NCBI GenBank assembly: GCA_028714495.1
Contig: JAQTMH010000005.1
Coordinates: forward strand, 32,840 to 96,839
From: Patescibacteria group bacterium
GTDB taxonomy: Bacteria > Patescibacteriota > Patescibacteriia > JAHIZJ01
Length of the DNA stretch: 64,000 bases
Reading direction: 5' to 3'
Shown: piece by piece, positions 9,305-63,329 of the stretch
Layout: every line of letters begins with the position of its first letter
How positions within the stretch are numbered: position 1 is the first letter of the stretch
Made by a program: the position numbers and the translations under genes
The notes under the pieces: generated by a model
What the model saw: the letters and a program-made list of their open reading frames with translations, nothing else
The model's database searches: none
Told to the model about the DNA's origin: nothing

Positions 9305-9319
9305 GTTTAACATCCAACA

Positions 9320-9366
9320 TTTTGAATTTTTAATTTTATCCCCGATTTAATCGGGGATTGAATTGC
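9320..9366. repeat. composite repeat: AT-rich motif (TTTTGAATTTTTAATTTTA) + GC hairpin CCCCGATTTAATCGGGG + ATTGAATT, directly upstream of the serS ATG
   Basis: A second copy lies at 63021-63067 (hairpin CCCCGACTTGATCGGGG + ATTGAATT), also ending about 8 nt before an ATG. Confidence 0.5.
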
Positions 9367-16150: not shown

Positions 16151-16187
16151 TCATTTTCCTAAATTTTTACATTTTGAAATATTAATT

Positions 16188-17357
16188 TTGAATTATTTTG
16201 CGACACTTATGGTCGAAAGAAAAAAAATAACCGTAGGCGTAATTTTCGGGGGACAGTCTGGGGAGCATGAGGTTTCTTTGGTTTCGGCAAATTCCGTGAT
16301 AAATTCCCTGGATCGAAAAAAATATCAGGTCATACCAATCGGTATAACAAAAAGCGGGCATTGGCTGATGGGACCAGACGCCTTGAAATTCTTACGAACA
16401 GGTCAGGGTGTCAATTTTCATCATGAAAGCATCATTCCTGAAAGTAACCAACAGGCGCTAGTTCCTATTAAAAAATCAATAAGTAAGCTGTCCCAAACAC
16501 AAAAGGGCATTTACCAAGGCAGGCTAGATGTCGTATTTCCCGTGCTTCATGGGCCATACGGCGAAGATGGAACTATCCAGGGGCTGTTTGAGCTGTCTGA
16601 CATACCTTATGTTGGCGCCGGGGTTCTAGCCTCGGCTTGCGGCATGGACAAGGTGGTAATGAAAGCTCTATTTCGTCAATCAGGCATACCCACGCCTAAA
16701 TATATCGGCGTTATCCGACACGATTTTGAGAAACATAAATCACAAATTATTAAAGAGATTGAAAAACACATTGGCTATCCAAACTTTATCAAACCAGCCA
16801 ATCTTGGTTCAAGCGTGGGCATATCAAAGTCCAAAAATCGCGCGGGCTTGGCTAGGGGAATCAGACAGGCTTTCAAATACGACCGCAAGGTGATTATTGA
16901 AGAGGCGATTACGGGGCGAGAAATTGAATGTTCGGTCATGGGCCATAACGAGCCGATTGCTTCTTTGCCCGGGGAGGTAAAGTCAAATCGCGAGTTTTAT
17001 GATTACCAAGCCAAATATATTGATGGATTATCGGAGATTATACTGCCCGCTCCATTGACGAATCGGCAGGTTAAACTTATTCGCGATCTCGCTATCCAGG
17101 CTTTTAGATCAATTGATTGCTCGGGTTTGGCCCGGATAGATTTTTTCCTCGAAAATAAAACAGGCAGAATTCTGGTCAACGAGATAAATACCATGCCCGG
17201 TTTTACCGATATCAGCATGTATCCAAAGCTCTGGGAAATCACCGGTTTGCCGTATCCAAGGCTCTTAGATAAATTGATTGAACTAGCGATATTTCGTCAT
17301 CGTGAGAAGTCGTTAATCAAAAAATCGTTTAAGCCGTCTAAAAACTGGTATGTTTAA
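16188..17357 (+). CDS. ddl: D-alanine--D-alanine ligase
   Basis: [16 protein letters not shown]-terminal motif and an ATP-grasp core. Follows alr. Confidence 0.85.
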
Positions 17358-49310: not shown

Positions 49311-49345
49311 CCTATTTTCATTTTTTTGGCAATATCGAAAACAGA

Positions 49346-49470
49346 AATTAAAAATGTAAAATTCAAAATGAAAAATTATTGTATCCCGCCTTTCGACTCC
49401 GCTCGAGGCGGGCTATTTGTCATTGCCTAAAGATAAAATAGGTAATGCATTTTGAATTTCTTCAAAAGAC
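49346..49470. mobile_element. MITE-like mini-element: 23-mer AATTAAAAATGTAAAATTCAAAA + CCCGCC(N18)GGCGGG hairpin + degenerate inverted copy of the 23-mer
   Basis: The 23-mer is identical to 61758-61780, and its reverse complement is at 62206-62228. Confidence 0.4.
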
Positions 49471-49842: not shown

Positions 49843-50319
49843 CTACTTCGGCGGATCCTGCCAAGTGGTGGCTTTGCCATCCGCCGGCAGCCTCACCTTG
49901 TACCCACCGTAGCACCAGGGCCATCCAGTCTTTCCGTTGGCGCCCCGGCAGTGCAGATACAGAGTCAGGTTCTTGTCGCAGGAACCGATGGCGTAGGTGA
50001 CCTCGCTTGCCGAATCCGGAACGTTGACAAGCTCGGGATCACCCATCAAACAATTGTCCCCTGACAACGAGACGGTGTAGGGTCCGGTGCCCGGGCCATC
50101 GTCCCACTGAACCTGCGTCGGGAATTGGACATGGGCCGTGAACAGGTACATCCCGCCGCCGATGTAGCTGACCTTGAAGTTGGGGTTGTCGATCACGACC
50201 ACGGTATCCGTGGGCGCGGACGCAGGCGTGACCGCCGACGGCGTGATCTGTGCCATCGCCGGAGCAATGCAGAAAGCCATCACTGCCAGCGTCAGCAACA
50301 GAACCAGGGTCTTTCTCAT
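49843..50319 (-). CDS. secreted hypothetical protein (GC-rich island)
   Basis: Start placed at MRKTLVLLLTLAVMAFCIAPAMA (signal peptide), with SD AAAGGGAGGAAGG upstream. GC about 58%. Confidence 0.5.
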   Translation of the reverse strand: MRKTLVLLLTLAVMAFCIAPAMAQITPSAVTPASAPTDTVVVIDNPNFKVSYIGGGMYLFTAHVQFPTQVQWDDGPGTGPYTVSLSGDNCLMGDPELVNVPDSASEVTYAIGSCDKNLTLYLHCRGANGKTGWPWCYGGYKVRLPADGKATTWQDPPK

Positions 50320-50380
50320 CTTTCCTTCCTCCCTTTCGTTTTTGGTGGTTGGCGATCTGATACAGTTCCGAAACGTGGTT

Positions 50381-51250
50381 CTAGTTCCCGCCGATGATGA
50401 TGCCGTAGCGCCGCTCATCGCCGGGACGGAGGTTGACTACCTGTCCGTCCGACGTGACGCGATATTCGAACACGAACCATCCGCCGCCGAGGTCCCGGAG
50501 GTTCTTCAGCTCCGTGGCAGCGGAGAAGTTCCCGACCGGACCGACGAATACGCCGGAGCGCAACTCGTCACCATTCGTCTTCTGCAAGCGGATCAGCGCC
50601 AATGAGTTCTTGCGAACCCTCATGGTTGTCGTCCAAGTGCTGTCAGCGAATTGCATCGGGTGGGTCGTGTACTGGAAAGTTGTCCACGTTCCCCACCAGT
50701 ACACCGGTCTGTCGGGGTTGGCAGGCCAGTCCAGGTTCGGGTCGTTGAAAGCCGTACCCGTGTACCAGACCTGGGCGCCCATGATGGAGTCCACGACGCC
50801 GGGATTGACCATGACTTGGCCATTCTCGACGTACAGTTGGAACTCACGCAAGATGGACCATTCGGTACCACGAGACGACAGCAACTGCTGGTCGTTGACG
50901 GCAACATCCAGCAGCCGGTTCATCCGATCCTCCCCGTCCATGTACCAGAAGCCGACGGTGAATCTCTCGGTTCCCCAGACCGACCTCGAGTAGGTACCCG
51001 TGACGTGTCCCTCTGAGAATGTCCCGAACAAGTGGAGCGTGTCAGGATTGGCGCTCGAGACGACATCGCCTGTGATGTACACCGGCCATCCGTCTTGTGC
51101 TCCCATCGGAGCCGTCGCGTTGAGCGTCAAGCTGACAGTCTCCTGGTCGGAAAGCCCGGGAGCGGCGAAATCCCAGCTGTCGCGCGAGCACCCGGCGCAA
51201 ATCGCCAGGACACCGATCACCAGCCATAGCCATCCGTGCATACGACTCAT
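50381..51250 (-). CDS. hypothetical lipoprotein (GC-rich island)
   Basis: Signal plus lipobox LAICAGCS. SD GAGGAGGAG. 289 aa. Confidence 0.5.
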   Translation of the reverse strand: MSRMHGWLWLVIGVLAICAGCSRDSWDFAAPGLSDQETVSLTLNATAPMGAQDGWPVYITGDVVSSANPDTLHLFGTFSEGHVTGTYSRSVWGTERFTVGFWYMDGEDRMNRLLDVAVNDQQLLSSRGTEWSILREFQLYVENGQVMVNPGVVDSIMGAQVWYTGTAFNDPNLDWPANPDRPVYWWGTWTTFQYTTHPMQFADSTWTTTMRVRKNSLALIRLQKTNGDELRSGVFVGPVGNFSAATELKNLRDLGGGWFVFEYRVTSDGQVVNLRPGDERRYGIIIGGN

Positions 51251-51263
51251 CTTCGCTCCTCCT

Positions 51264-53114
51264 CTACCAGCCGTGGTCCAGGCCGATGCCGAACCAATGG
51301 CGGTCTGTGTGTGTGACCTCTCCGTTTGTCAGATTCCGATCGGTTGTGTCATTCATGAACTTGTACAAACCCTTGATTCGCCAGTACCGGTTAAAGCGGT
51401 ACTCGAAGCCCGCGCCAGGCCCGTTCCAGTCGAAACTCCATACCTGGCTGTCATACGACCAGGAGTCGTAAGACGCGTAGAGTACGAGCTTGTCCACTGG
51501 CTTGATGCCGATCCTTCCTTCGAAAACCCGCATCGTATCAGCGGAGAACGACAGGGTCTGGCCGTCGAAGTGACGAGCCTGCTCCTTTCGAAGCGCTCGA
51601 TCATAGGACGCCCGGAAATAGAACTTTCCAGGCTCAACAGTGTAGTTGCCGCCCAAGGAGTAGTCGAGGTTGGTACCACGCTTGTAGGTCATCTCGTAAT
51701 ACCCCAGCTGTGGAGTAATGCCGAGAATCCGACCATACCAGCCGTACCCATCGAAATACTTCGCCTTCTCCTGGGCGTGAATGAGGGTTGGCGTAACGTT
51801 GGTGTACTGTACGTACTCGCGCTGGCTTGATAGATACCAAGCTCCAGGTTCAAACCCTGTCCGCCAGAGACCTTGGAGGTCTCCGAGGATCCAGGCCCGT
51901 CCTCCGAGCCGATATTCACCGCTGACATGGTTCTTGTCCATGACAGCTTGTTCGACCCGGATGACAGTTGACATGTCGCAGAAGGGTCCCCAGCCATCAT
52001 AGCCGGAGATCCTCGGCAGCCACTCAAGGCCGCCGAAAACCGAGTGTTGATACGCATCATCCCTCACGTCCGCGTAGGCCAAACGGTAGTCCAGCCACCA
52101 CACTCCGCCCTGCACGAAATTGTGCGAAGTTTCAGGTGGAGCAGTGATCGGCGTAGCAACTGTCTGCGTAGGCGGAGCTGCGGTGCTGACTGGCGGAGGT
52201 TGCTGAATAGTGACGTCAGTCGAACCTTCATAGGAAAGAGGCACACGAACGAAGGCTCCGTTTTGGCAGTCGACGAACTGATACAGATAGTACCGGTAAT
52301 CGCCGAGGTCAACGGGATCATACTGCAGTGCTACCAGCCGATCAATCGGTTTGTGGTTCTTCGCGTCCTTCCAGTAGCAGACGGTTCTTCCCCAGGACTT
52401 CACGTCCTTTGAGAAACGCCCGCCGAAGATGAGCGCGTCGAGAACCAGCGGTTTGGATTCAGTGGAATACATCCAAACTGAATCCGGTTGGTTACCCCCG
52501 ATAATCGACTCCCACTGCGCGCGGACTTGTTCCGGTACGTTCATGAGCCGAAGTTGATCCTTCAGCTCGATTCCAGCCGGGTCACCGTTGGCGAAGTTCC
52601 ACGTGCGGAGCACATCAGATGGCTGCGCCATGAAAATCTTCGCGTCTGCTTTGGGTTTCCTACCAGTCGCCTGGTTGAAGCGCTTGATGTCCTCTTCGGA
52701 CACCCCAGCCTCTTTGGCGATCTCTTGCCAGCTTTCTCCCTTTTTGACGACTCTGGTAGGCGGCAGCTGAATCGGTTCCGGCTGCTTTTCCGTGCGTCTG
52801 ATATCGAGTTTGGTGTCCTGCACCGGGATCCATTCAGACCCCTTACAATACGCCAGTACCCGATATTCCACCCAGAAAGCGTCTCCACCCACCTGTTCAA
52901 CCGCGAAGTTGCCGTCTTTCGGCACCTGGATCCGTGTGATCCGTGAGTCAACAAGCTGTCCCACCTCAACCATGTTGCCGCCACCGGGCATGGTTACGTT
53001 GGCAAGATTGACAACCTTGCCATAAGGGGGCTGCTCGCACTGCGCGAAGACTGCGGAGCCGGTCGTCAATACGACCAGCGCGACCAAAACCGCCAGAACC
53101 GTATACCAACGCAT
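51264..53114 (-). CDS. secreted LysM-domain protein with C-terminal outer-membrane-type beta-barrel (GC-rich island)
   Basis: Signal peptide, a LysM-like segment (ESWQEIAKEAGVSEEDIKRF), and a C-terminal ~270 aa of amphipathic beta strands ending ..FGIGLDHGW. SD AAAGGAGGAT. Confidence 0.5.
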   Translation of the reverse strand: MRWYTVLAVLVALVVLTTGSAVFAQCEQPPYGKVVNLANVTMPGGGNMVEVGQLVDSRITRIQVPKDGNFAVEQVGGDAFWVEYRVLAYCKGSEWIPVQDTKLDIRRTEKQPEPIQLPPTRVVKKGESWQEIAKEAGVSEEDIKRFNQATGRKPKADAKIFMAQPSDVLRTWNFANGDPAGIELKDQLRLMNVPEQVRAQWESIIGGNQPDSVWMYSTESKPLVLDALIFGGRFSKDVKSWGRTVCYWKDAKNHKPIDRLVALQYDPVDLGDYRYYLYQFVDCQNGAFVRVPLSYEGSTDVTIQQPPPVSTAAPPTQTVATPITAPPETSHNFVQGGVWWLDYRLAYADVRDDAYQHSVFGGLEWLPRISGYDGWGPFCDMSTVIRVEQAVMDKNHVSGEYRLGGRAWILGDLQGLWRTGFEPGAWYLSSQREYVQYTNVTPTLIHAQEKAKYFDGYGWYGRILGITPQLGYYEMTYKRGTNLDYSLGGNYTVEPGKFYFRASYDRALRKEQARHFDGQTLSFSADTMRVFEGRIGIKPVDKLVLYASYDSWSYDSQVWSFDWNGPGAGFEYRFNRYWRIKGLYKFMNDTTDRNLTNGEVTHTDRHWFGIGLDHGW

Positions 53115-58962: not shown

Positions 58963-61389
58963 TTAAATTAATGTCTTTTCGCCTTCCCGCCTGGTGCTTC
59001 CGGCGATTGGCAAGGTAAAGAAGAAATTGGTGCCCCTGCCTTCTTCCGATTTAAACCAGATCTTACCGCCTGAGGCTTCGACCACCGATTTCGCGACATA
59101 GAGCCCCAAGCCAGTTCCTTCGGTCTGCAGAGTAATGACATTATCAGCCCGGAAAAACTTTTTAAAGACTTTTGACTGCTGGGATTTTGGAATGCCGACG
59201 CCCGTGTCAAAAACTTCAAAAGTCAAAAACTTCGCATCCCGACTGACCCGAACTCCCAATTTGCCTCCCTCAGGCGTATACTTAACGGCATTTGAGATTA
59301 GATTCTGAAATACCTGTCGGATCAACTTTGGATCAATCTTTATTTGGGGAGTACCGCCAGATAATTTTTCAAATACCGTCTTCTGTTTTTTCTGTTTGAT
59401 TATATGAGCCAGTTCAAAAATCACGCTTTCGATCATGCCATCGATATCGGTCAGTATCGGCTCTATGGCAATTGTGCCAGATTCGATGCGCGAGACATTC
59501 AAGAGGTCGTTGACCAGAGCGATCATTCGCTCGTTGGACTTGGTAATATGATCGATATATTCAGACTGCTCCTTATTTAGCTTTCCCGCGTCACCATCCA
59601 TGAGCATCTCGAGAAACCATTTCGAGGCCGACAATGGCGTGCGCAACTGATGCGAGGCGACAGACACGAACTCTGATTTCATCTTATCAATCTCTTGTTC
59701 CTTTGTCACGTCCTTAATAACTACCACGCCACCGTGAATTTCACCGCTGGGATCTTTTAAGGGTGTCGCGGTAATAGTCACGGGTATCCCTTTTTTCTTT
59801 TTGGTTACGACGGCGAATTCCCCGGTTCCGGTAGCCACTACGTTACCGGTCTCGATCGCCTTGATAATCGGATTTACATCCTTGTTTTTATCGGTCAGCT
59901 TGATGTATTTTAGATTAATAATCGCGTCTAAATCTTTTCCAATTATTTCCGGGATCCGATAGTCAAGCAAGTCGCTGGCCGCTTCGTTGCAAGCGATAAA
60001 CTCTTTATCTTTATTCAAAGCCAATACGCCATCACCGACATTCTGTAAAATTGATTCAGATTTGTTTTTTTCATCTTCAATCGAATGTCTGGCAATTTCC
60101 AGATCCCTTACCTTTTGGCGTAATTCTTGAGTTCGTTCGGCTACCAGCGCCTCCAATTTTGTATAGTACTCGTGAAGTTTGTCCTTCATGTTGATAAAAC
60201 TATGCGTCAAGTCGCCAATCTCGTCTTCTCTTTCCGGCGGCTGGATATCGATATCCAGATTACCATGACTTAGCCGGTTAGCGTTAATCGCCAGTTCCTT
60301 CAACGGCCGAGTGATAGATTTAACCAGAAATCTTGTGATAAAGTAGATCAGCACAAACATACCCACGCCAATAATCAAAAATCTTAGACGGATTGAACCG
60401 ATGCTGCTGGTGACTTCTGATTCAGGTATGCCCCTGGCGATGCTCCCGATTACTTCATTCTCAAAATTTCTGATCGGCTGATAAGCCACTAGGTACCATT
60501 CATCGAGTTCAAACGCTCTACCGGAAAAATCTTTTTGGGTTATATAAACAGTATTAACTATTTCTTCGGAAGCCAATGTTCCAATCGCCCGCTTGTTAAT
60601 ATTCTGATATTGCTGCGTAGTGGCGGCCCGGGCATCATAGAGATACAGCGACGCGATACCCCTGCCTCGCTGGACCAAACGATCGAGTATTTCATTATTA
60701 TTATTCAAGAGAACTCCCCCAATGATCGCACCGACAACCTCACCGTCATTGATTATCACAGTGCCCGCCGCCATCACCAAACCATCATGTTCATCTTCCT
60801 GGGTTCGCCATCCTTGTTTTGACTTTTCCGTGGGTATTCTATTTATCAAAGCTTTTTTAGCCAACTCCTCAGAATGGGCTTGCATTTCTTCCTGGGTGAT
60901 TATTTCAACCGATTTGCCAGTGGTTTTATTCTTAATTACATTTTCTACATAACCCTTGAGTGATATTTTCTGTCCAACTTTAATATTTTCACTACCGACT
61001 AAGATGTTTCCTTTTGAATCTACAATATCAACAAAACTCAATCCTTGGGCTTCCTGAGTATTTTTTATTTGTTTCTTAAGAGCGACATACTCGGATAATT
61101 CCTCTAATTTTGAAATGTCTTTTTCAGCAGCTAACGTATTCACTGTTTGGACAAAATCTTGGCCTCGGGCTAATGATTCAACGTCAGTTAGAATTTGATC
61201 ATGACTCTCACTGAACACAATTGAAAATGTCTCAAGCGTGGCATTAACGCGTTCCTGTACTTCCGTTTTCAGACTGCCAGTAAAAGTCGAAATTATCATG
61301 TAAACAAAAATTGCGATTACGCAACCGGCAATCGCCACCATGTAATAGAGAAAACGCGTGTTTAAACTCGAAGAGAAAAATTTCGCCAT
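58963..61389 (-). CDS. sensor histidine kinase (TM - periplasmic sensor - TM - HAMP - PAS - HisKA - HATPase)
   Basis: H-box SHQLRTPL, N-box NLISNAVKYT and G-boxes DTGVGI and GTGLGL. Two TMs bracket a ~300-aa extracytoplasmic domain. Confidence 0.85.
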   Translation of the reverse strand: MAKFFSSSLNTRFLYYMVAIAGCVIAIFVYMIISTFTGSLKTEVQERVNATLETFSIVFSESHDQILTDVESLARGQDFVQTVNTLAAEKDISKLEELSEYVALKKQIKNTQEAQGLSFVDIVDSKGNILVGSENIKVGQKISLKGYVENVIKNKTTGKSVEIITQEEMQAHSEELAKKALINRIPTEKSKQGWRTQEDEHDGLVMAAGTVIINDGEVVGAIIGGVLLNNNNEILDRLVQRGRGIASLYLYDARAATTQQYQNINKRAIGTLASEEIVNTVYITQKDFSGRAFELDEWYLVAYQPIRNFENEVIGSIARGIPESEVTSSIGSIRLRFLIIGVGMFVLIYFITRFLVKSITRPLKELAINANRLSHGNLDIDIQPPEREDEIGDLTHSFINMKDKLHEYYTKLEALVAERTQELRQKVRDLEIARHSIEDEKNKSESILQNVGDGVLALNKDKEFIACNEAASDLLDYRIPEIIGKDLDAIINLKYIKLTDKNKDVNPIIKAIETGNVVATGTGEFAVVTKKKKGIPVTITATPLKDPSGEIHGGVVVIKDVTKEQEIDKMKSEFVSVASHQLRTPLSASKWFLEMLMDGDAGKLNKEQSEYIDHITKSNERMIALVNDLLNVSRIESGTIAIEPILTDIDGMIESVIFELAHIIKQKKQKTVFEKLSGGTPQIKIDPKLIRQVFQNLISNAVKYTPEGGKLGVRVSRDAKFLTFEVFDTGVGIPKSQQSKVFKKFFRADNVITLQTEGTGLGLYVAKSVVEASGGKIWFKSEEGRGTNFFFTLPIAGSTRREGEKTLI

Positions 61390-61396
61390 GCCAATC

Positions 61397-61555
61397 CTTT
61401 TTTATAAACCCAGTTTGGTAATAATCCGGTTTAACACGTTGGGCCGGTAATCAAATGGCTGATGTTCTCTTAATTCCGGCATAATAAAAACCCACTCGGC
61501 CGGCTGGGTGGGATATCTGACAATAAATTTTTTTGCCTGCTTTATTTTTGTTTTC
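61397..61555 (-). CDS. possible 52-aa ORF immediately upstream of the kinase gene (not in ORF track)
   Basis: Translation: MKTKIKQAKKFIVRYPTQPAEWVFIMPELREHQPFDYRPNVLNRIITKLGL. Its stop is 5 nt from the kinase start. Weak support. Confidence 0.2.
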
Positions 61556-61757
61556 ATGTTTTAATTATAGCATAGTTAATGAATTTTGTCCAGCAAAAAC
61601 AGAATAATCAAAAATTTATAAAGAATTTTGACATTGTGGATAACCTCCTCTTGACGTTCGGTTTTTGTTCGGGTAGGATATAAATATCGAGATATTCACA
61701 ACCTTGAATGAGTAATAAAGCGGTTTGTGATTGATAACAAAATGTGGAATAATTCAA

Positions 61758-62228
61758 AATTAAAAATGTAAAATTCAAAAGGAAGGAAGACGACAGGGAG
61801 AAATGAAGGGCATTTTATGGCTGTCGTCACTATTCATCAACGCACCTTAAAATTTAGTATTACTATTACTCGTTTCCTTCATAAGATTATCGCCACACCA
61901 AAATCGCACATCATCAGAAATCAGCTCATGCGATCAGGGTGTTCAATCGGCGCCAATATTGTCGAAGCGCAACATAGCGTCACCAAGAAGGAGTTTCAAC
62001 GCTTTATAAGTATCGCCTTACGTTCTGCTAGAGAGACCGAATACTGGCTGAATATATTAAAGGAGCTCGAAAACAATCATCAACCGTTTATCAACAATAT
62101 TCTCCGAGAAAATGATGAAATTTCTAAAATTATCGCAGCCATAATTCTTAAATCAAAGGATGGGACTTAAATTTTGCGTTTTGAATCCTTAATATTATAC
62201 ATTAATTTTGAATTTTACATTTTTAATT
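61758..62228. mobile_element. 471-bp unit bounded by perfect 23-bp inverted repeats (AATTAAAAATGTAAAATTCAAAA / TTTTGAATTTTACATTTTTAATT) carrying a four-helix-bundle protein gene
   Basis: IRs seen at 61758-61780 and 62206-62228. A further copy is at 49346-49368. Confidence 0.5.
61817..62170 (+). CDS. four-helix-bundle protein (TIGR02436 / 23S rRNA intervening-sequence protein family)
   Basis: HQRTLKFSI..RNQLMRSGCSIGANIVEAQ..SARETEYWL is the characteristic pattern. 117 aa. Confidence 0.75.
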   Translation: MAVVTIHQRTLKFSITITRFLHKIIATPKSHIIRNQLMRSGCSIGANIVEAQHSVTKKEFQRFISIALRSARETEYWLNILKELENNHQPFINNILRENDEISKIIAAIILKSKDGT

Positions 62229-62294
62229 CTTTAAAAGATCTACCATAATTTTGCATTTTTAATTTTAAATTTTTAATTCTTAATTGACATTCAT

Positions 62295-62951
62295 ATGGTT
62301 GAACGCCTTACTAAAAAACAAAAAGAAATTCTTGACTTTGTAATCGAGTTTATAAAGGTAAGCGGCTATTCACCGAGTTATCGGGAAATTGCCGACCATC
62401 TCGGTCTGTCCTCCCCTGCCACCATCCATGAACATATCCGAGGACTTGAAGACAAGGGCTATCTCAAGGCCCAAGAGGGCCGGGCTCGCTCGCTTGAACC
62501 AACCCGGGCAACGCGTTTCAAAAAAGCGCTTGAATTACCCCTCGCTGGTTTGATTACAGCCGGAGAGCCGATTGAGGCTGTTCAAGAAAATGAGACAATT
62601 ACCGTTCCGGCGGAAATTGTTCGCGATGAAAATTCTTATGTCCTGAAGGTTAAGGGTGAATCAATGATCGAGGATGGAATACTGGACGGCGATTATGTAA
62701 TTGTTGAACGCAATTTCTATCCGCGAAATGGCGATGTAGTCGTAGCTCTACTGGACAATACCTATGCCACGCTTAAACGTTATTACCGTGAAAGGTCGCG
62801 CATCCGCCTTCAGCCAGCCAATTCAAAGATGAAGCCGATTTATTCCAAGAATCCGGCGATTCAGGGAATTGTCCGTGCCATTTTCCGCAAGTTTGAAACT
62901 GATTGGCAGAACTATAAAACCTACACTAGAGGTTTTCAGACGGTAAAGTAG
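62295..62951 (+). CDS. lexA: LexA repressor (S24 peptidase)
   Basis: N-terminal winged HTH (SYREIADHLGLSSPATIHEHI) and the C-terminal Ser/Lys dyad region (VKGESMIEDGI..ATLKRY). Confidence 0.85.
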   Translation: MVERLTKKQKEILDFVIEFIKVSGYSPSYREIADHLGLSSPATIHEHIRGLEDKGYLKAQEGRARSLEPTRATRFKKALELPLAGLITAGEPIEAVQENETITVPAEIVRDENSYVLKVKGESMIEDGILDGDYVIVERNFYPRNGDVVVALLDNTYATLKRYYRERSRIRLQPANSKMKPIYSKNPAIQGIVRAIFRKFETDWQNYKTYTRGFQTVK

Positions 62952-62960
62952 AACAAAGGT

Positions 62961-63067
62961 AATGTAAAATTAAAAATTAAGAATTAAAAATGATGGTAAT
63001 CCGCCGCAGGCGGATACAATAATTTTAAATTTTACATTTTGTCCCCGACTTGATCGGGGATTGAATT
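62961..63067. repeat. mini inverted-repeat element (AATGTAAAATTAAAAATT .. TCCGCCgcaGGCGGA hairpin .. AATTTTAAATTTTACATT) followed by the CCCCGACTTGATCGGGG + ATTGAATT hairpin
   Basis: 18-bp IR with one mismatch. Second copy of the composite hairpin seen at 9340-9364. Ends 8 nt before the ATG of 63075. Confidence 0.45.
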
Positions 63068-63074
63068 CCGATTT

Positions 63075-63329
63075 ATGACTCACTACGAGAAGGTTAATGA
63101 ACCCATTAATGTCATTGCCTCGTTCGCGGGCAATAAAGTGATCCCGCATGCTTTTACCTGGGGACAGCATCGCTATACCATAAAAAAGCTCAACCTGGTG
63201 CACCTAGAACGGGTGGGCCGAGATCTAATTTATTATTTCTCGGTTTCGGACAAAGCCAATACCTTTAAGCTGGCTTTTAATCCGAGCGAGCTCAAATGGC
63301 GTTTGGAGGAATTGTACACGGAGGGGTAA
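63075..63329 (+). CDS. hypothetical 84-aa protein downstream of lexA
   Basis: ORF only, no recognisable motif. Confidence 0.35.
   Translation: MTHYEKVNEPINVIASFAGNKVIPHAFTWGQHRYTIKKLNLVHLERVGRDLIYYFSVSDKANTFKLAFNPSELKWRLEELYTEG

Follow-up and report, generated by a model that had tools for sequence, protein, structure and literature searches.

The window, the whole stretch of 64,000 nucleotides that was analyzed, carries a gene for a 117-aa four-helix-bundle (4HB) protein (61817-62170, + strand) between inverted copies of a 23-mer, AATTAAAAATGTAAAATTCAAAA. A search of the window found this 23-mer exactly at 61758-61780 (+), 62206-62228 (-) and 49346-49368 (+), and as a near-copy with 2 mismatches at 62256-62278 (-); only 0.01 exact copies would be expected in the window by chance. 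With 425 nt between them, the two inverted copies bound a 471-bp unit that contains the gene, as the first-pass annotation had described when it placed perfect 23-bp inverted repeats around a TIGR02436 gene. [quoted passage not shown] Its relatives by sequence in PDB are 2RLD (E = 1e-36) and 2GSC, each of which lists five chains.

Internally, the 23-mer is made up of heptamers repeated in tandem (AATTNAA), a feature that the first-pass annotation had overlooked. The left, A-rich heptamer arm (61748-61780, +) reads AATAATTCAA AATTAAA AATGTAA AATTCAA AA and includes the first exact 23-mer. It is followed by a leader (61781-61816, +) that runs to the start codon and begins with GGAAGGAAGACG (61781-61792), which is conserved in the related locus L037. 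On the other side of the gene, the left 23-mer recurs as its exact reverse complement in the T-rich right arm 1 (62197-62231, +), and right arm 2 (62240-62290, +), a tandem copy that follows 43 nt farther on, ends 5 nt before the lexA ATG. Within arm 2, positions 62247-62274 are 89% complementary over 28 nt to 61748-61775, which makes this arm an alternative pairing partner. The left arm and right arm 1 are complementary at 23/23 positions and are paired in both the MFE and centroid folds of 61745-62295; the fold of the whole unit is unexceptional (z = -1.5) because the arms are AU-rich. [quoted passage not shown] Lag-7 identity in the cassette arms is 0.58-0.60, and the window contains 6 arrays of period 7, compared with 0-2 for each of lags 5, 6 and 8-11.

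Downstream of the unit lies lexA (62295-62951, +, identified by a profile match), and upstream of it is a sigma-70-like promoter, TTGACG-17-TAGGAT (61651-61679, +), that overlaps a direct repeat, GTTCGGT-N4-GTTCGGG (61656-61673), a candidate LexA operator. A TTGACG..GTTCGGT-N4-GTTCGGT..TATAAT block precedes lexA in the related loci L037, L146, L148 (of which L149 is the same sequence) and L150, and a variant, TTGACA..GTTCGGT-N4-GTTCGGT..TATCAT, does so in L153. The site at 61651-61679 is likely the lexA promoter, which places the cassette in the leader of lexA, its host gene. Apart from this promoter, no + strand promoter-like site was found in 62170-62295, and no terminator-like site was scored in 61350-63150. 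Having no recognizable promoter or terminator of its own, the cassette is probably read through from the host promoter. Its neighbors, taken as ~3 kb upstream and the genes downstream, are a sensor kinase, two response regulators, lexA and unassigned ORFs; no reverse transcriptase was identified among them. At metagenomic 4HB loci, the gap between the ORF and the start of the next gene downstream is usually 45-70 nt, and both neighbors are co-oriented with the 4HB gene in 38 of 49 loci.

Heptamer arrays also occur in the window apart from any 4HB gene. An ORF-less palindrome at a convergent gene junction (49343-49465, +) consists of an A-arm with the third exact 23-mer, two internal hairpins and a T-arm, CATTTTGAATTT, and folds with z = -4.3. 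The association of this 23-mer with a CCCGCC...GGCGGG hairpin, noted earlier, holds: the copy forms the 5' arm of a hairpin of 130 nt, within which the GC-rich stem lies. A second ORF-less palindrome built from the same heptamers precedes ORF 63075 (62959-63041, +), with an A-arm, a GC hairpin, TCCGCCGCAGGCGGA, and a T-arm (z = -2.6). A solo T-rich array of the same heptamer family lies between alr and ddl (16160-16200, +); it is weakly periodic and alone does not fold (z = 0.69). Another precedes serS (9313-9340, +) and is followed by a CCCCGA..TCGGGG hairpin. The diverged copies reported earlier before lexA, ddl, serS and ORF 63075 therefore correspond to three T-rich arrays (that of lexA being right arm 2) and one palindrome. 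Like STRR repeats, the window arrays are intergenic, hairpin-capable and made of tandem 7-bp units. Neither Rfam at its gathering threshold nor a tRNA scan gave a match in the window.

The reference genomes hold 58 exact copies of the 23-mer, reaching distant phyla, a number that, with the 0.01 copies expected in the window, eliminates chance or low complexity as the origin of the motif; a few hits (L019, L030 and L049) do match by chance, in coding or AT-rich sequence. A further heptamer precedes 25 of the 58 copies, and a T-rich period-7 array lies within 250 nt of 22 of them, compared with 6 of 240 random windows. Viral contigs contained no exact 23-mer. The 23-mer does not serve to mark 4HB cassettes, and the test proposed earlier, whether it flanks other 4HB paralogs, gave the same answer: in stretches of up to 8 kb around the 58 copies, searched by phmmer and with a profile from CPR-type proteins that may miss distant members, a 4HB gene adjoins only the copy in L037, which is the orthologous locus.

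What recurs around 4HB genes is the layout of arm, gene and arm. TRF was applied to 132 flanks belonging to 72 non-redundant metagenomic 4HB genes and detected tandem repeats in 118 of them (~90%), the best repeat having a period of 7 in 77 flanks and of 14 in 21, with a median of 4.1 heptamer copies per arm (IQR 3.4-4.9). The best lag was 7 in 110 of 136 flanks. Duplex energy proved useless as a measure of arm pairing, as the GC-rich coding flanks of control ORFs outscore the AU-rich arms, and pairing was scored instead by complementarity between the upstream and downstream flanks; by this measure 75% of 60 4HB genes exceed the 95th percentile of control ORFs. The arms of one element are closer in reverse-complement heptamer distance (1.6) than arms of different elements (2.29; permutation p < 0.0002), and the distance between arms in direct orientation is 3.8. 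Arm mismatches include a small excess of the G:U type over the A:C type (111 vs 79, p = 0.024) among elements that are not independent of each other. Period-7 arrays are present in 58 of 91 intergenic regions adjoining 4HB genes and in 24 of 92 others on the same contigs (64% vs 26%; odds ratio 5, p = 3e-7), and their presence in 26% of the other regions means that the association could partly be a property of the genome and not of the gene. This intergenic control supersedes a first density comparison, whose 19-fold difference was too large because coding DNA had been counted in its denominator.

The same layout extends well beyond the CPR. Inverted heptamer arms flank 8 of 9 plasmid-borne 4HB genes, from Cyanobacteriota, Bacteroidota, Spirochaetota, Chloroflexota and Bacillota, with heptamer sequences that are lineage-specific; in a Bernardetia plasmid copy the arrays are direct, not inverted. 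The 4HB genes of Nostoc, Dolichospermum and Gloeocapsa are flanked by heptamer arrays, and the one phage-like contig homolog examined (L157) is without heptamer arms. A fixed polarity, purine-rich upstream and pyrimidine-rich downstream, holds in the CPR set and fails as a rule in Gloeocapsa and Pseudanabaena. In all, 24,097 clusters (50% identity) match the PF05635/TIGR02436 profile. The cassettes are also found between ordinary genes, including inside operons and defense loci. By exact matching, none of ~160 fetched loci contained any of ten conserved 16S/23S motifs, and none of ~90 other 4HB loci contained any of ten conserved rRNA motifs.

Related genomes differ in what they carry at the lexA locus. 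The window and L037 are sisters on the LexA tree, and both have the 4HB gene there. Among syntenic kinase/lexA loci, that of L146 is empty, with lexA and its promoter present and no heptamer array; L150 has an ORF-less palindrome; and L148 has only a T-array, at the position of arm 2, with no 4HB gene adjoining lexA. L152 also has a T-array before lexA and no adjoining 4HB gene, on a contig that begins 78 nt before lexA, and L153 has in the same intergenic region a different 4HB gene, on the other strand and with its own inverted repeat. The earlier proposal to look for empty sites in relatives thus revealed polymorphism of the unit. In another lineage, arm-ORF-arm units whose ORFs are 87-97% identical occupy five unrelated contexts, homology starting at the A-arm and fading ~40 nt past the T-arm. 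The dN/dS of these dispersed ORFs, 0.06-0.37, indicates purifying selection on the protein.

The left arm is strongly conserved at the sequence level. Counted with the 12 nt that follow, it matches at 35/35 positions between the window and L037, whereas the ORFs are 67.5% and the lexA genes 75.8% identical, with dS saturated. In L037 the heptamers of the right arm follow a different order from those of the window. Conservation of the left arm beyond the needs of pairing, beside a reordered right arm, points to a sequence-specific reader, one that the model favored below does not specify.

The unit, as far as sequence comparison can tell, behaves as a mobile cassette: it is present or absent among close relatives, and near-identical units recur in unrelated contexts, much as the first-pass annotation had supposed of a gene traveling between inverted repeats. 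Inspection by eye revealed no direct repeat around 61748/62231 that could be a target-site duplication, and none was noticed by eye at the fuzzy boundaries of the dispersed family. Neither the cassette ORF nor the ten other window ORFs scanned, which lie beside the cassette or the heptamer arrays, matched a transposase. Because neither a target-site duplication nor a recombinase or other mobility enzyme turned up, "mobile" is used here in a sense drawn solely from comparative patterns.

We favor, with a probability of roughly 60%, the reading that the unit is a 4HB (S23p/IVP) cassette in inverted heptamer arrays, akin to the ORF-bearing 23S IVSs, that resides in the lexA leader. The best explanation we can propose for the wider pattern is that such cassettes form a very large, phylum-spanning class of which the window unit is one member. 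In the host transcript the arms would form a duplex of 23 bp, a length sufficient for RNase III to act on; if it does, the element could persist within host transcripts at low cost. Cleavage by RNase III has been demonstrated experimentally for rRNA intervening sequences, and it is by analogy with these alone that the window unit would be cut. The genome's heptamer palindromes that have no ORF may be gene-less relatives or, possibly, docking sites. Spread would probably proceed via the heptamer arrays, through recombination or conversion between arrays or a hairpin-dependent step, and probably does not use a classical transposase.

A rather unlikely alternative, and the one that survives best, is that the arrays are binding sites of a pentameric 4HB protein, with about one heptamer per subunit, and serve autoregulation or packaging, also at the ORF-less palindromes. 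The median of ~4 heptamers per arm is near the five chains listed for 2RLD and 2GSC, the latter being XCC0516, a homopentamer (PMC4990558), although heptamer number fits five only loosely. The conservation of the left arm, the purifying selection on dispersed copies and the sharing of heptamers between arms and gene-less palindromes within a locus would also suit a protein that reads the arrays. However, co-inheritance of gene and arms would explain shared heptamers without recognition, and 57 loci have the same 23-mer and no 4HB gene within the stretches of up to 8 kb searched with the CPR-type profile, which may miss distant members.

We regard as unlikely that the unit is a classical DNA transposon, a MITE-like passenger whose arms are terminal inverted repeats recognized by a transposase acting in trans, with the ORF-less palindromes as its non-autonomous copies. 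The bounding inverted repeats, the presence/absence polymorphism, the near-identical units in unrelated contexts and the short gene-less versions with shared heptamers are all expected of such an element, and multiple copies in differing contexts are indeed accompanied by empty sites. The arms, however, are tandem heptamers that vary in number and order between copies, not fixed termini, and since heptamers differ by lineage, every lineage would need a co-evolving transposase. With no transposase match among the window ORFs scanned and no target-site duplication seen by eye, the earlier label "MITE- or IS-like" is not supported in its strict sense, and the "terminal repeats" are better described as heptamer arrays of variable copy number.

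It is improbable that the arrays are bidirectional intrinsic terminators or insulators, composed of an A-arm, a GC hairpin and a T-arm, that happen to border a gene. The ORF-less copies at gene 3' ends (those in 49343-49465 and 62959-63041) do show, loosely, the layout of A-tract, GC hairpin and T-tract. The arms of the cassette, however, are 425 nt apart with a gene between them, the region around the unit scored no intrinsic terminator, and one placed before lexA would sever that gene from its only recognizable promoter; at other loci the downstream gene starts ~50 nt after the ORF, which leaves no room for a promoter. Least probable by far, and contradicted by the data, is a reiterated promoter or operator element, the alternative offered in the first-pass annotation. 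The motif does contain TTGAAT-like hexamers, and T-arrays lie just upstream of the start codons of serS, ddl, lexA and ORF 63075, but copies are found on either strand, paired in inverted orientation, and one (49346) sits where two genes converge. Moreover, the entire unit is downstream of the conserved lexA promoter, L146 combines this promoter and lexA without any array, and in five phyla arrays of differing sequence lie on both the 5' and 3' sides of 4HB genes.

Returning to the IVS-like cassette, PF05635/TIGR02436 is a very large family whose function is described in the literature consulted as unknown, and the only genomic context described there, homology to Avd aside, is the rRNA intervening sequence. 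An arm-gene-arm heptamer layout found in ~90% of the flanks sampled and in five plasmid-bearing phyla turns what was a curiosity in the rRNA of a few pathogens into a general class of element, and links that class to two puzzles of long standing, STRR repeats and the origin and mobility of IVSs. For annotation, a "four helix bundle protein" that splits an operon is probably an inserted element and not a component of the pathway. More tentatively, and with doubt prevailing, IVSs, cyanobacterial STRR hairpins and the heptamer palindromes of CPR, Bacteroidota, Acidobacteriota and others might constitute one selfish superfamily, with the pentameric 4HB protein as a dedicated partner that reads the heptamers, each subunit taking about one, and aids the elements in their spread, their maintenance or the processing of their RNA. 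Should this doubtful possibility be true, it would give > 24,000 sequence clusters a function and account for both STRRs and IVSs.

Several known systems share parts of this design. Avd, the DGR accessory protein, has a homologous pentameric four-helix-bundle fold (PMC10053308); no reverse transcriptase was identified among the genes that flank the cassette gene. MITEs and REP-type palindromes resemble the ORF-less copies as short, multi-copy, gene-less intergenic palindromes that share their ends with a gene-bearing form, but here no sign of a transposase partner or a target-site duplication was seen, heptamers in tandem make up the arms, and the exact 23-mer recurs in distant phyla. STRRs are tandem 7-bp intergenic repeats able to form hairpins, whose function was called unknown in 2009 (PMC2670836). 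The ORF-less heptamer copies resemble these cyanobacterial hairpins; the literature found on STRRs covers heterocystous and other filamentous cyanobacteria and makes no link to a gene family, whereas the arrays described here are tied to PF05635 and occur in CPR and several other phyla. To judge by the title of Vioque's 1997 paper, an STRR has reportedly been seen inside a stable RNA gene.

The closest counterpart is the IVS of Coxiella burnetii, which has a 28-bp terminal inverted-repeat stem, carries 2-3 tandem GACAGAT heptamers ahead of an S23p ORF, and is cut by RNase III at the first repeat (PMC4990558). ORF-bearing 23S IVSs are also cited there for Leptospira, Xanthomonas and Brucella. 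In the literature searched, PF05635 genes are linked to heptamer arms nowhere outside the Coxiella IVS. The tie to rRNA intervening sequences suggested in the first-pass annotation is borne out by these parallels: the Coxiella IVS (428-444 nt) is similar in size to the window unit (471 nt), both have terminal inverted repeats with a stem of more than 20 bp around a PF05635/S23p ORF, and both have tandem heptamers adjoining the ORF, whose copy number varies between strains in Coxiella. The sporadic distribution, read as horizontal spread, is also common to IVSs and the window unit. Unlike an IVS, which is inserted in a 23S or 16S rRNA helix, the window unit is part of the 5' leader of lexA, and RNase III excision, demonstrated for the Coxiella IVS, is for the window unit a conjecture. 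Finally, the Coxiella ORF is apparently decaying and untranslated, whereas the dispersed relatives of the window unit, with dN/dS of 0.06-0.37, retain a protein under selection.

The 23-mer AATTAAAAATGTAAAATTCAAAA is present in three exact copies in the window, at 61758-61780 (+) and 62206-62228 (-), left and right of the four-helix-bundle gene, and at 49346-49368 (+); a copy with 2 mismatches lies at 62256-62278 (-), and 0.01 chance matches are obtained in the shuffled window. The perfect inverted pair and the third identical copy reported in the first-pass annotation were all verified at their positions. The pair, with a spacing of 425 nt, encloses a single ORF (61817-62170), whose product matched PF05635 (74.7 bits) and TIGR02436 (88.3 bits) in profile searches, both well over the curated cut-offs. 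lexA lies downstream of this gene, and a Cache/PAS histidine kinase gene lies upstream on the other strand. An identical protein is on record for a 'Patescibacteria group bacterium'. L001, a short-read contig with the same four-helix-bundle gene, ends within the repeat immediately 3' of it. The window contains neither a tRNA nor, at the gathering threshold, any Rfam family.

The arms consist of tandem heptamers. In register, the left arm, within 61748-61780, reads AATTCAA AATTAAA AATGTAA AATTCAA AA, and the right side of the cassette carries two T-rich heptamer arrays (62197-62231 and 62240-62290) at a spacing of 43 nt. Lag-7 self-identity of the arms is 0.58-0.60, and a fixed criterion identified 6 period-7 arrays in the window, versus 0-2 for lags 5, 6 and 8-11. 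When 61745-62295 was folded as RNA, both 23-nt arms were paired in the minimum-energy and centroid structures; the fold energy is unremarkable (z = -1.5) because the arm pairs are AU. The left arm (61748-61775) is also complementary at 25/28 positions to the second T-array (62247-62274), whose end is 5 nt before the lexA ATG, and such alternative pairing could affect lexA translation.

Gene-less palindromes of the cassette's heptamers are found at a convergent gene junction (49343-49465) and after lexA (62959-63041), each folding into a long hairpin with GC stems inside it (z = -4.3 and -2.6, respectively), while solo T-arrays lie before serS (9313-9340) and in the alr/ddl spacer (16160-16200). 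The diverged copies noted earlier near lexA, ddl and serS correspond to T-arrays, and that near ORF 63075 to the palindrome. A second repeat family, at 9338-9364 and 63041-63067, consists of a hairpin, CCCCGA-N5-TCGGGG, followed by ATTGAATT. Between its two copies it is 87% identical over 46 nt; it folds well (z = -3.7), ends 8-10 nt 5' of the serS and ORF 63075 start codons and may represent a translational or processing signal. A 2-kb block at 50001-52000 has a GC content of 58% (about 44% for the window) and ORFs overlapping on both strands, including one without a family match (49843-50418), and may be foreign DNA.

The bracketing of the gene is genuine and exemplifies a general rule. A metagenome scan yielded 80 loci with relatives 37-69% identical, nearly all of which, judged by eye, have an A-rich array 5' and its inverse 3' (for example AACTCAAAACTCAAAGTGCAAAACC ... 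GGTTTTGAGTTTTGAACTTTGAGTT, as well as AATTCAG-type and AAAGCGC-type heptamers). TRF detected tandem repeats in 118/132 flanks, with a best period of 7 in 77 and of 14 in 21 and a median copy number of 4.1; lag 7 was the best lag in 110/136 flanks. For 75% of 60 non-redundant genes, complementarity between upstream and downstream sequences exceeded the 95th percentile of control ORFs. Within an element, one arm is the reverse complement of the other, with 1.6 mismatches per heptamer compared to 2.29 against arms of other elements (p < 0.0002). Period-7 arrays occur in 58/91 intergenic regions adjoining these genes, against 24/92 others on the same contigs (odds ratio 5, p = 3e-7). Their frequency in the latter is an important qualification to the rule; many of these other arrays are gene-less palindromes sharing the heptamers of the local cassette.

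Nine annotated plasmid-borne copies from five phyla have heptamer arms throughout, each with heptamers of its own: TAATTCG / AATTTGG in Dolichospermum, GTCGGAG / CTCCGAC in Nostoc punctiforme, AAAGTGG-type in Treponema, ATGAAGG in Chlorohelix, CAGTGAA in Chondrinema, AATTAGG in Monoglobus and TTTTAGA in Gloeocapsa. The arms are inverted in 8 and direct in Bernardetia. Two co-oriented genes flank the gene in 7/9 of these loci (the upstream neighbour is divergent in N. punctiforme, and Pseudanabaena has no annotated one within 800 nt), often such that an operon is interrupted, as in RND adaptor / four-helix bundle / RND permease or hsdS / four-helix bundle / hsdR. Both neighbours are likewise co-oriented in 38/49 metagenomic cases, where the next gene usually begins 45-70 nt after the ORF, leaving space for the T-arm only. 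None of ten conserved rRNA motifs, matched exactly, was found in the four-helix-bundle loci examined. Defence loci are a frequent setting (plasmid loci L140, L144, L154, L155 and L156): besides the hsdS / hsdR arrangement, the gene lies between helicase and DNA methylase genes (twice, in different phyla), between DUF1156 and HEPN protein genes, and once adjoining cas1. The one four-helix-bundle homologue examined from a phage-like contig (gut contig MT835815.1, L157) is devoid of heptamer arms; it may belong to the DGR Avd type and would be a good negative control in testing the rule.

We searched GTDB, one genome per species, for the exact 23-mer and found 58 copies, where uniform composition predicts about 0.02. 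The hosts are Bacteroidota, Acidobacteriota (Pyrinomonadaceae), Verrucomicrobiota, Cyanobacteriota, Planctomycetota, Methylomirabilota, Omnitrophota and CPR lineages, with 8 copies in one Terrimonas MAG (Bacteroidota); three are cultured isolates (Nostoc sp. KVJ20, Dendronalium and Segetibacter). In most cases the 23-mer makes up the A-rich side of a short palindrome whose loop measures 0-80 nt and whose other side is a T-rich heptamer arm; an extra heptamer precedes the 23-mer in 25/58, and a T-rich period-7 array lies within 250 nt in 22/58, versus 6/240 random windows. A few are chance matches in coding DNA. The first-pass annotation asked whether the 23-mer flanks other four-helix-bundle genes: in stretches of up to 8 kb around the 58 copies, a profile built from CPR-type proteins, which distant family members could escape, found the gene only at L037, the ortholog of the window locus. 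The 23-mer is therefore no private end of the cassette. In a Terrimonas MAG (L007, 3461-4200), a non-coding stretch of about 650 nt, containing two direct repeats, each about 270 nt long, with GC-rich hairpins, lies between heptamer arms that carry the exact 23-mer; the cargo here may be an RNA instead of a protein gene. In Nostoc sp. KVJ20 (contig_313), the 23-mer opens a heptamer palindrome in the apparent spacer of two tRNA genes, judged by resemblance: the 3' sequence, GGGGGTTTAGCTCAGTTGGTAGAGCGCCTGCTT, is tRNA-like and the 5' sequence resembles a tRNA 3' end. This element seems to lie inside a stable-RNA transcription unit.

Syntenic kinase/lexA loci, reached through LexA proteins 77-87% identical, are polymorphic for the cassette. 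L146 has the promoter, a 60-nt leader and lexA, with neither array nor four-helix-bundle gene; in L150 the site is occupied by a degenerate palindrome without a gene; and L148 has only a T-array beside the lexA start codon, as does L152, whose contig begins 78 nt before lexA and so covers the T-array side only. The LexA tree groups the window with L037 as sisters and places L146, L148 and L150 just outside. One gain of the cassette beside a pre-existing T-array would fit this tree, loss in the others being the alternative. In L153 the same intergenic region holds a different four-helix-bundle gene (137 aa; 2392-2805), which lies upstream of the promoter, on the opposite strand, and is flanked by CAAGAGGCAAGAGACAAACAA and its near-perfect inverse; its heptamers, CAAGAGG / CAAGAGA, are unrelated to those of the window, and it either entered this spacer independently or replaced the other gene. 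Five unrelated contexts in a separate lineage contain ORFs that are 87-97% identical in nucleotide sequence. Homology among these dispersed copies starts at the A-arm and fades about 40 nt beyond the T-arm, the number of outer heptamers varying, and their dN/dS is 0.06-0.37; the protein is therefore maintained by selection. Dispersal and orthologous-site polymorphism agree with the inverted-repeat-bounded cassette first proposed, but a strict MITE or IS reading lacks its defining enzyme and duplication, as no target-site duplication was found by eye and no transposase among the window ORFs scanned. Spread would instead probably proceed through the heptamer arrays.

The other proposal, that the 23-mer is a promoter or operator, is rejected, as the lexA promoter lies upstream of the whole cassette. 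A sigma-70-like promoter, TTGACG-17-TAGGAT (61651-61679), is overlapped in its -35/-10 region by a direct repeat, GTTCGGT-N4-GTTCGGG (61656-61673). The block TTGACG / GTTCGGT-N4-GTTCGGT / TATAAT precedes lexA in L037, L146, L148 and L150, and L153 has a variant of it; the repeat is kept in all five, and the window copy has 1 mismatch. We therefore take 61651-61679 to be the likely lexA promoter and the repeat to be a probable LexA operator, a candidate of the direct-repeat type in this CPR lineage. The repeat resembles the alphaproteobacterial GTTC-N7-GTTC box. No further forward-strand promoter-like site was found between cassette and lexA, and no terminator-like site was scored in 61350-63150; the cassette therefore lies within the lexA leader, and would be transcribed by read-through from the lexA promoter. 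Downstream of lexA, an 84-aa ORF without a family match (63075-63329) recurs in 6/6 related loci extending past lexA (L146-L150 and L153), with an 83-aa ORF at the same position in L152. A Y-family polymerase (IMS) gene lies farther 3' in five of them, the L147 contig stopping short of that point. The small ORF probably belongs to the SOS unit, as an uncharacterised component.

Synonymous sites have reached saturation between the window and L037 (ORF 67.5% and lexA 75.8% identical), yet 35 nt, comprising the left arm and the 12 nt after it, are identical. The L037 right arm has the same heptamers in a different order; thus the left arm is conserved beyond the needs of pairing. This reflects either a sequence-specific reader or uniformity through conversion from other copies. 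The most interesting idea for the role of the protein is that its pentamer may read the heptamers. Sense-strand mismatches between paired arms are G:U-type in 111 cases versus A:C-type in 79 (p = 0.024, from non-independent elements), which weakly hints that the arms pair in the sense RNA. The arm duplex would be processed by RNase III.

Several known systems resemble this element. The 23S rRNA intervening sequence of Coxiella burnetii, of 428-444 nt, has a 28-bp terminal inverted-repeat stem, an S23p ORF preceded by 2 or 3 tandem GACAGAT heptamers, their number varying among strains, and an RNase III cut where the first repeat begins; mobility of such elements, served by the ORF, is a proposal of older authors (PMC4990558). 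For CPR 16S and 23S rRNA genes, insertions with PF05635 ORFs have also been reported (PMC11270868), and the family shares homology with Avd, the accessory protein of DGRs (PMC10053308). The heptamer hairpins of filamentous cyanobacteria are STRR sequences, of unknown function (PMC2670836), placed also inside the RNase P RNA gene by the title of Vioque 1997. Within our incomplete coverage of the literature, we found no paper linking non-rRNA PF05635 genes to heptamer arms or STRRs to the PF05635 family, which is an absence of evidence. The window unit is best described as a cassette of the same type as the 23S rRNA intervening sequences, but its location is an mRNA leader, not an rRNA.
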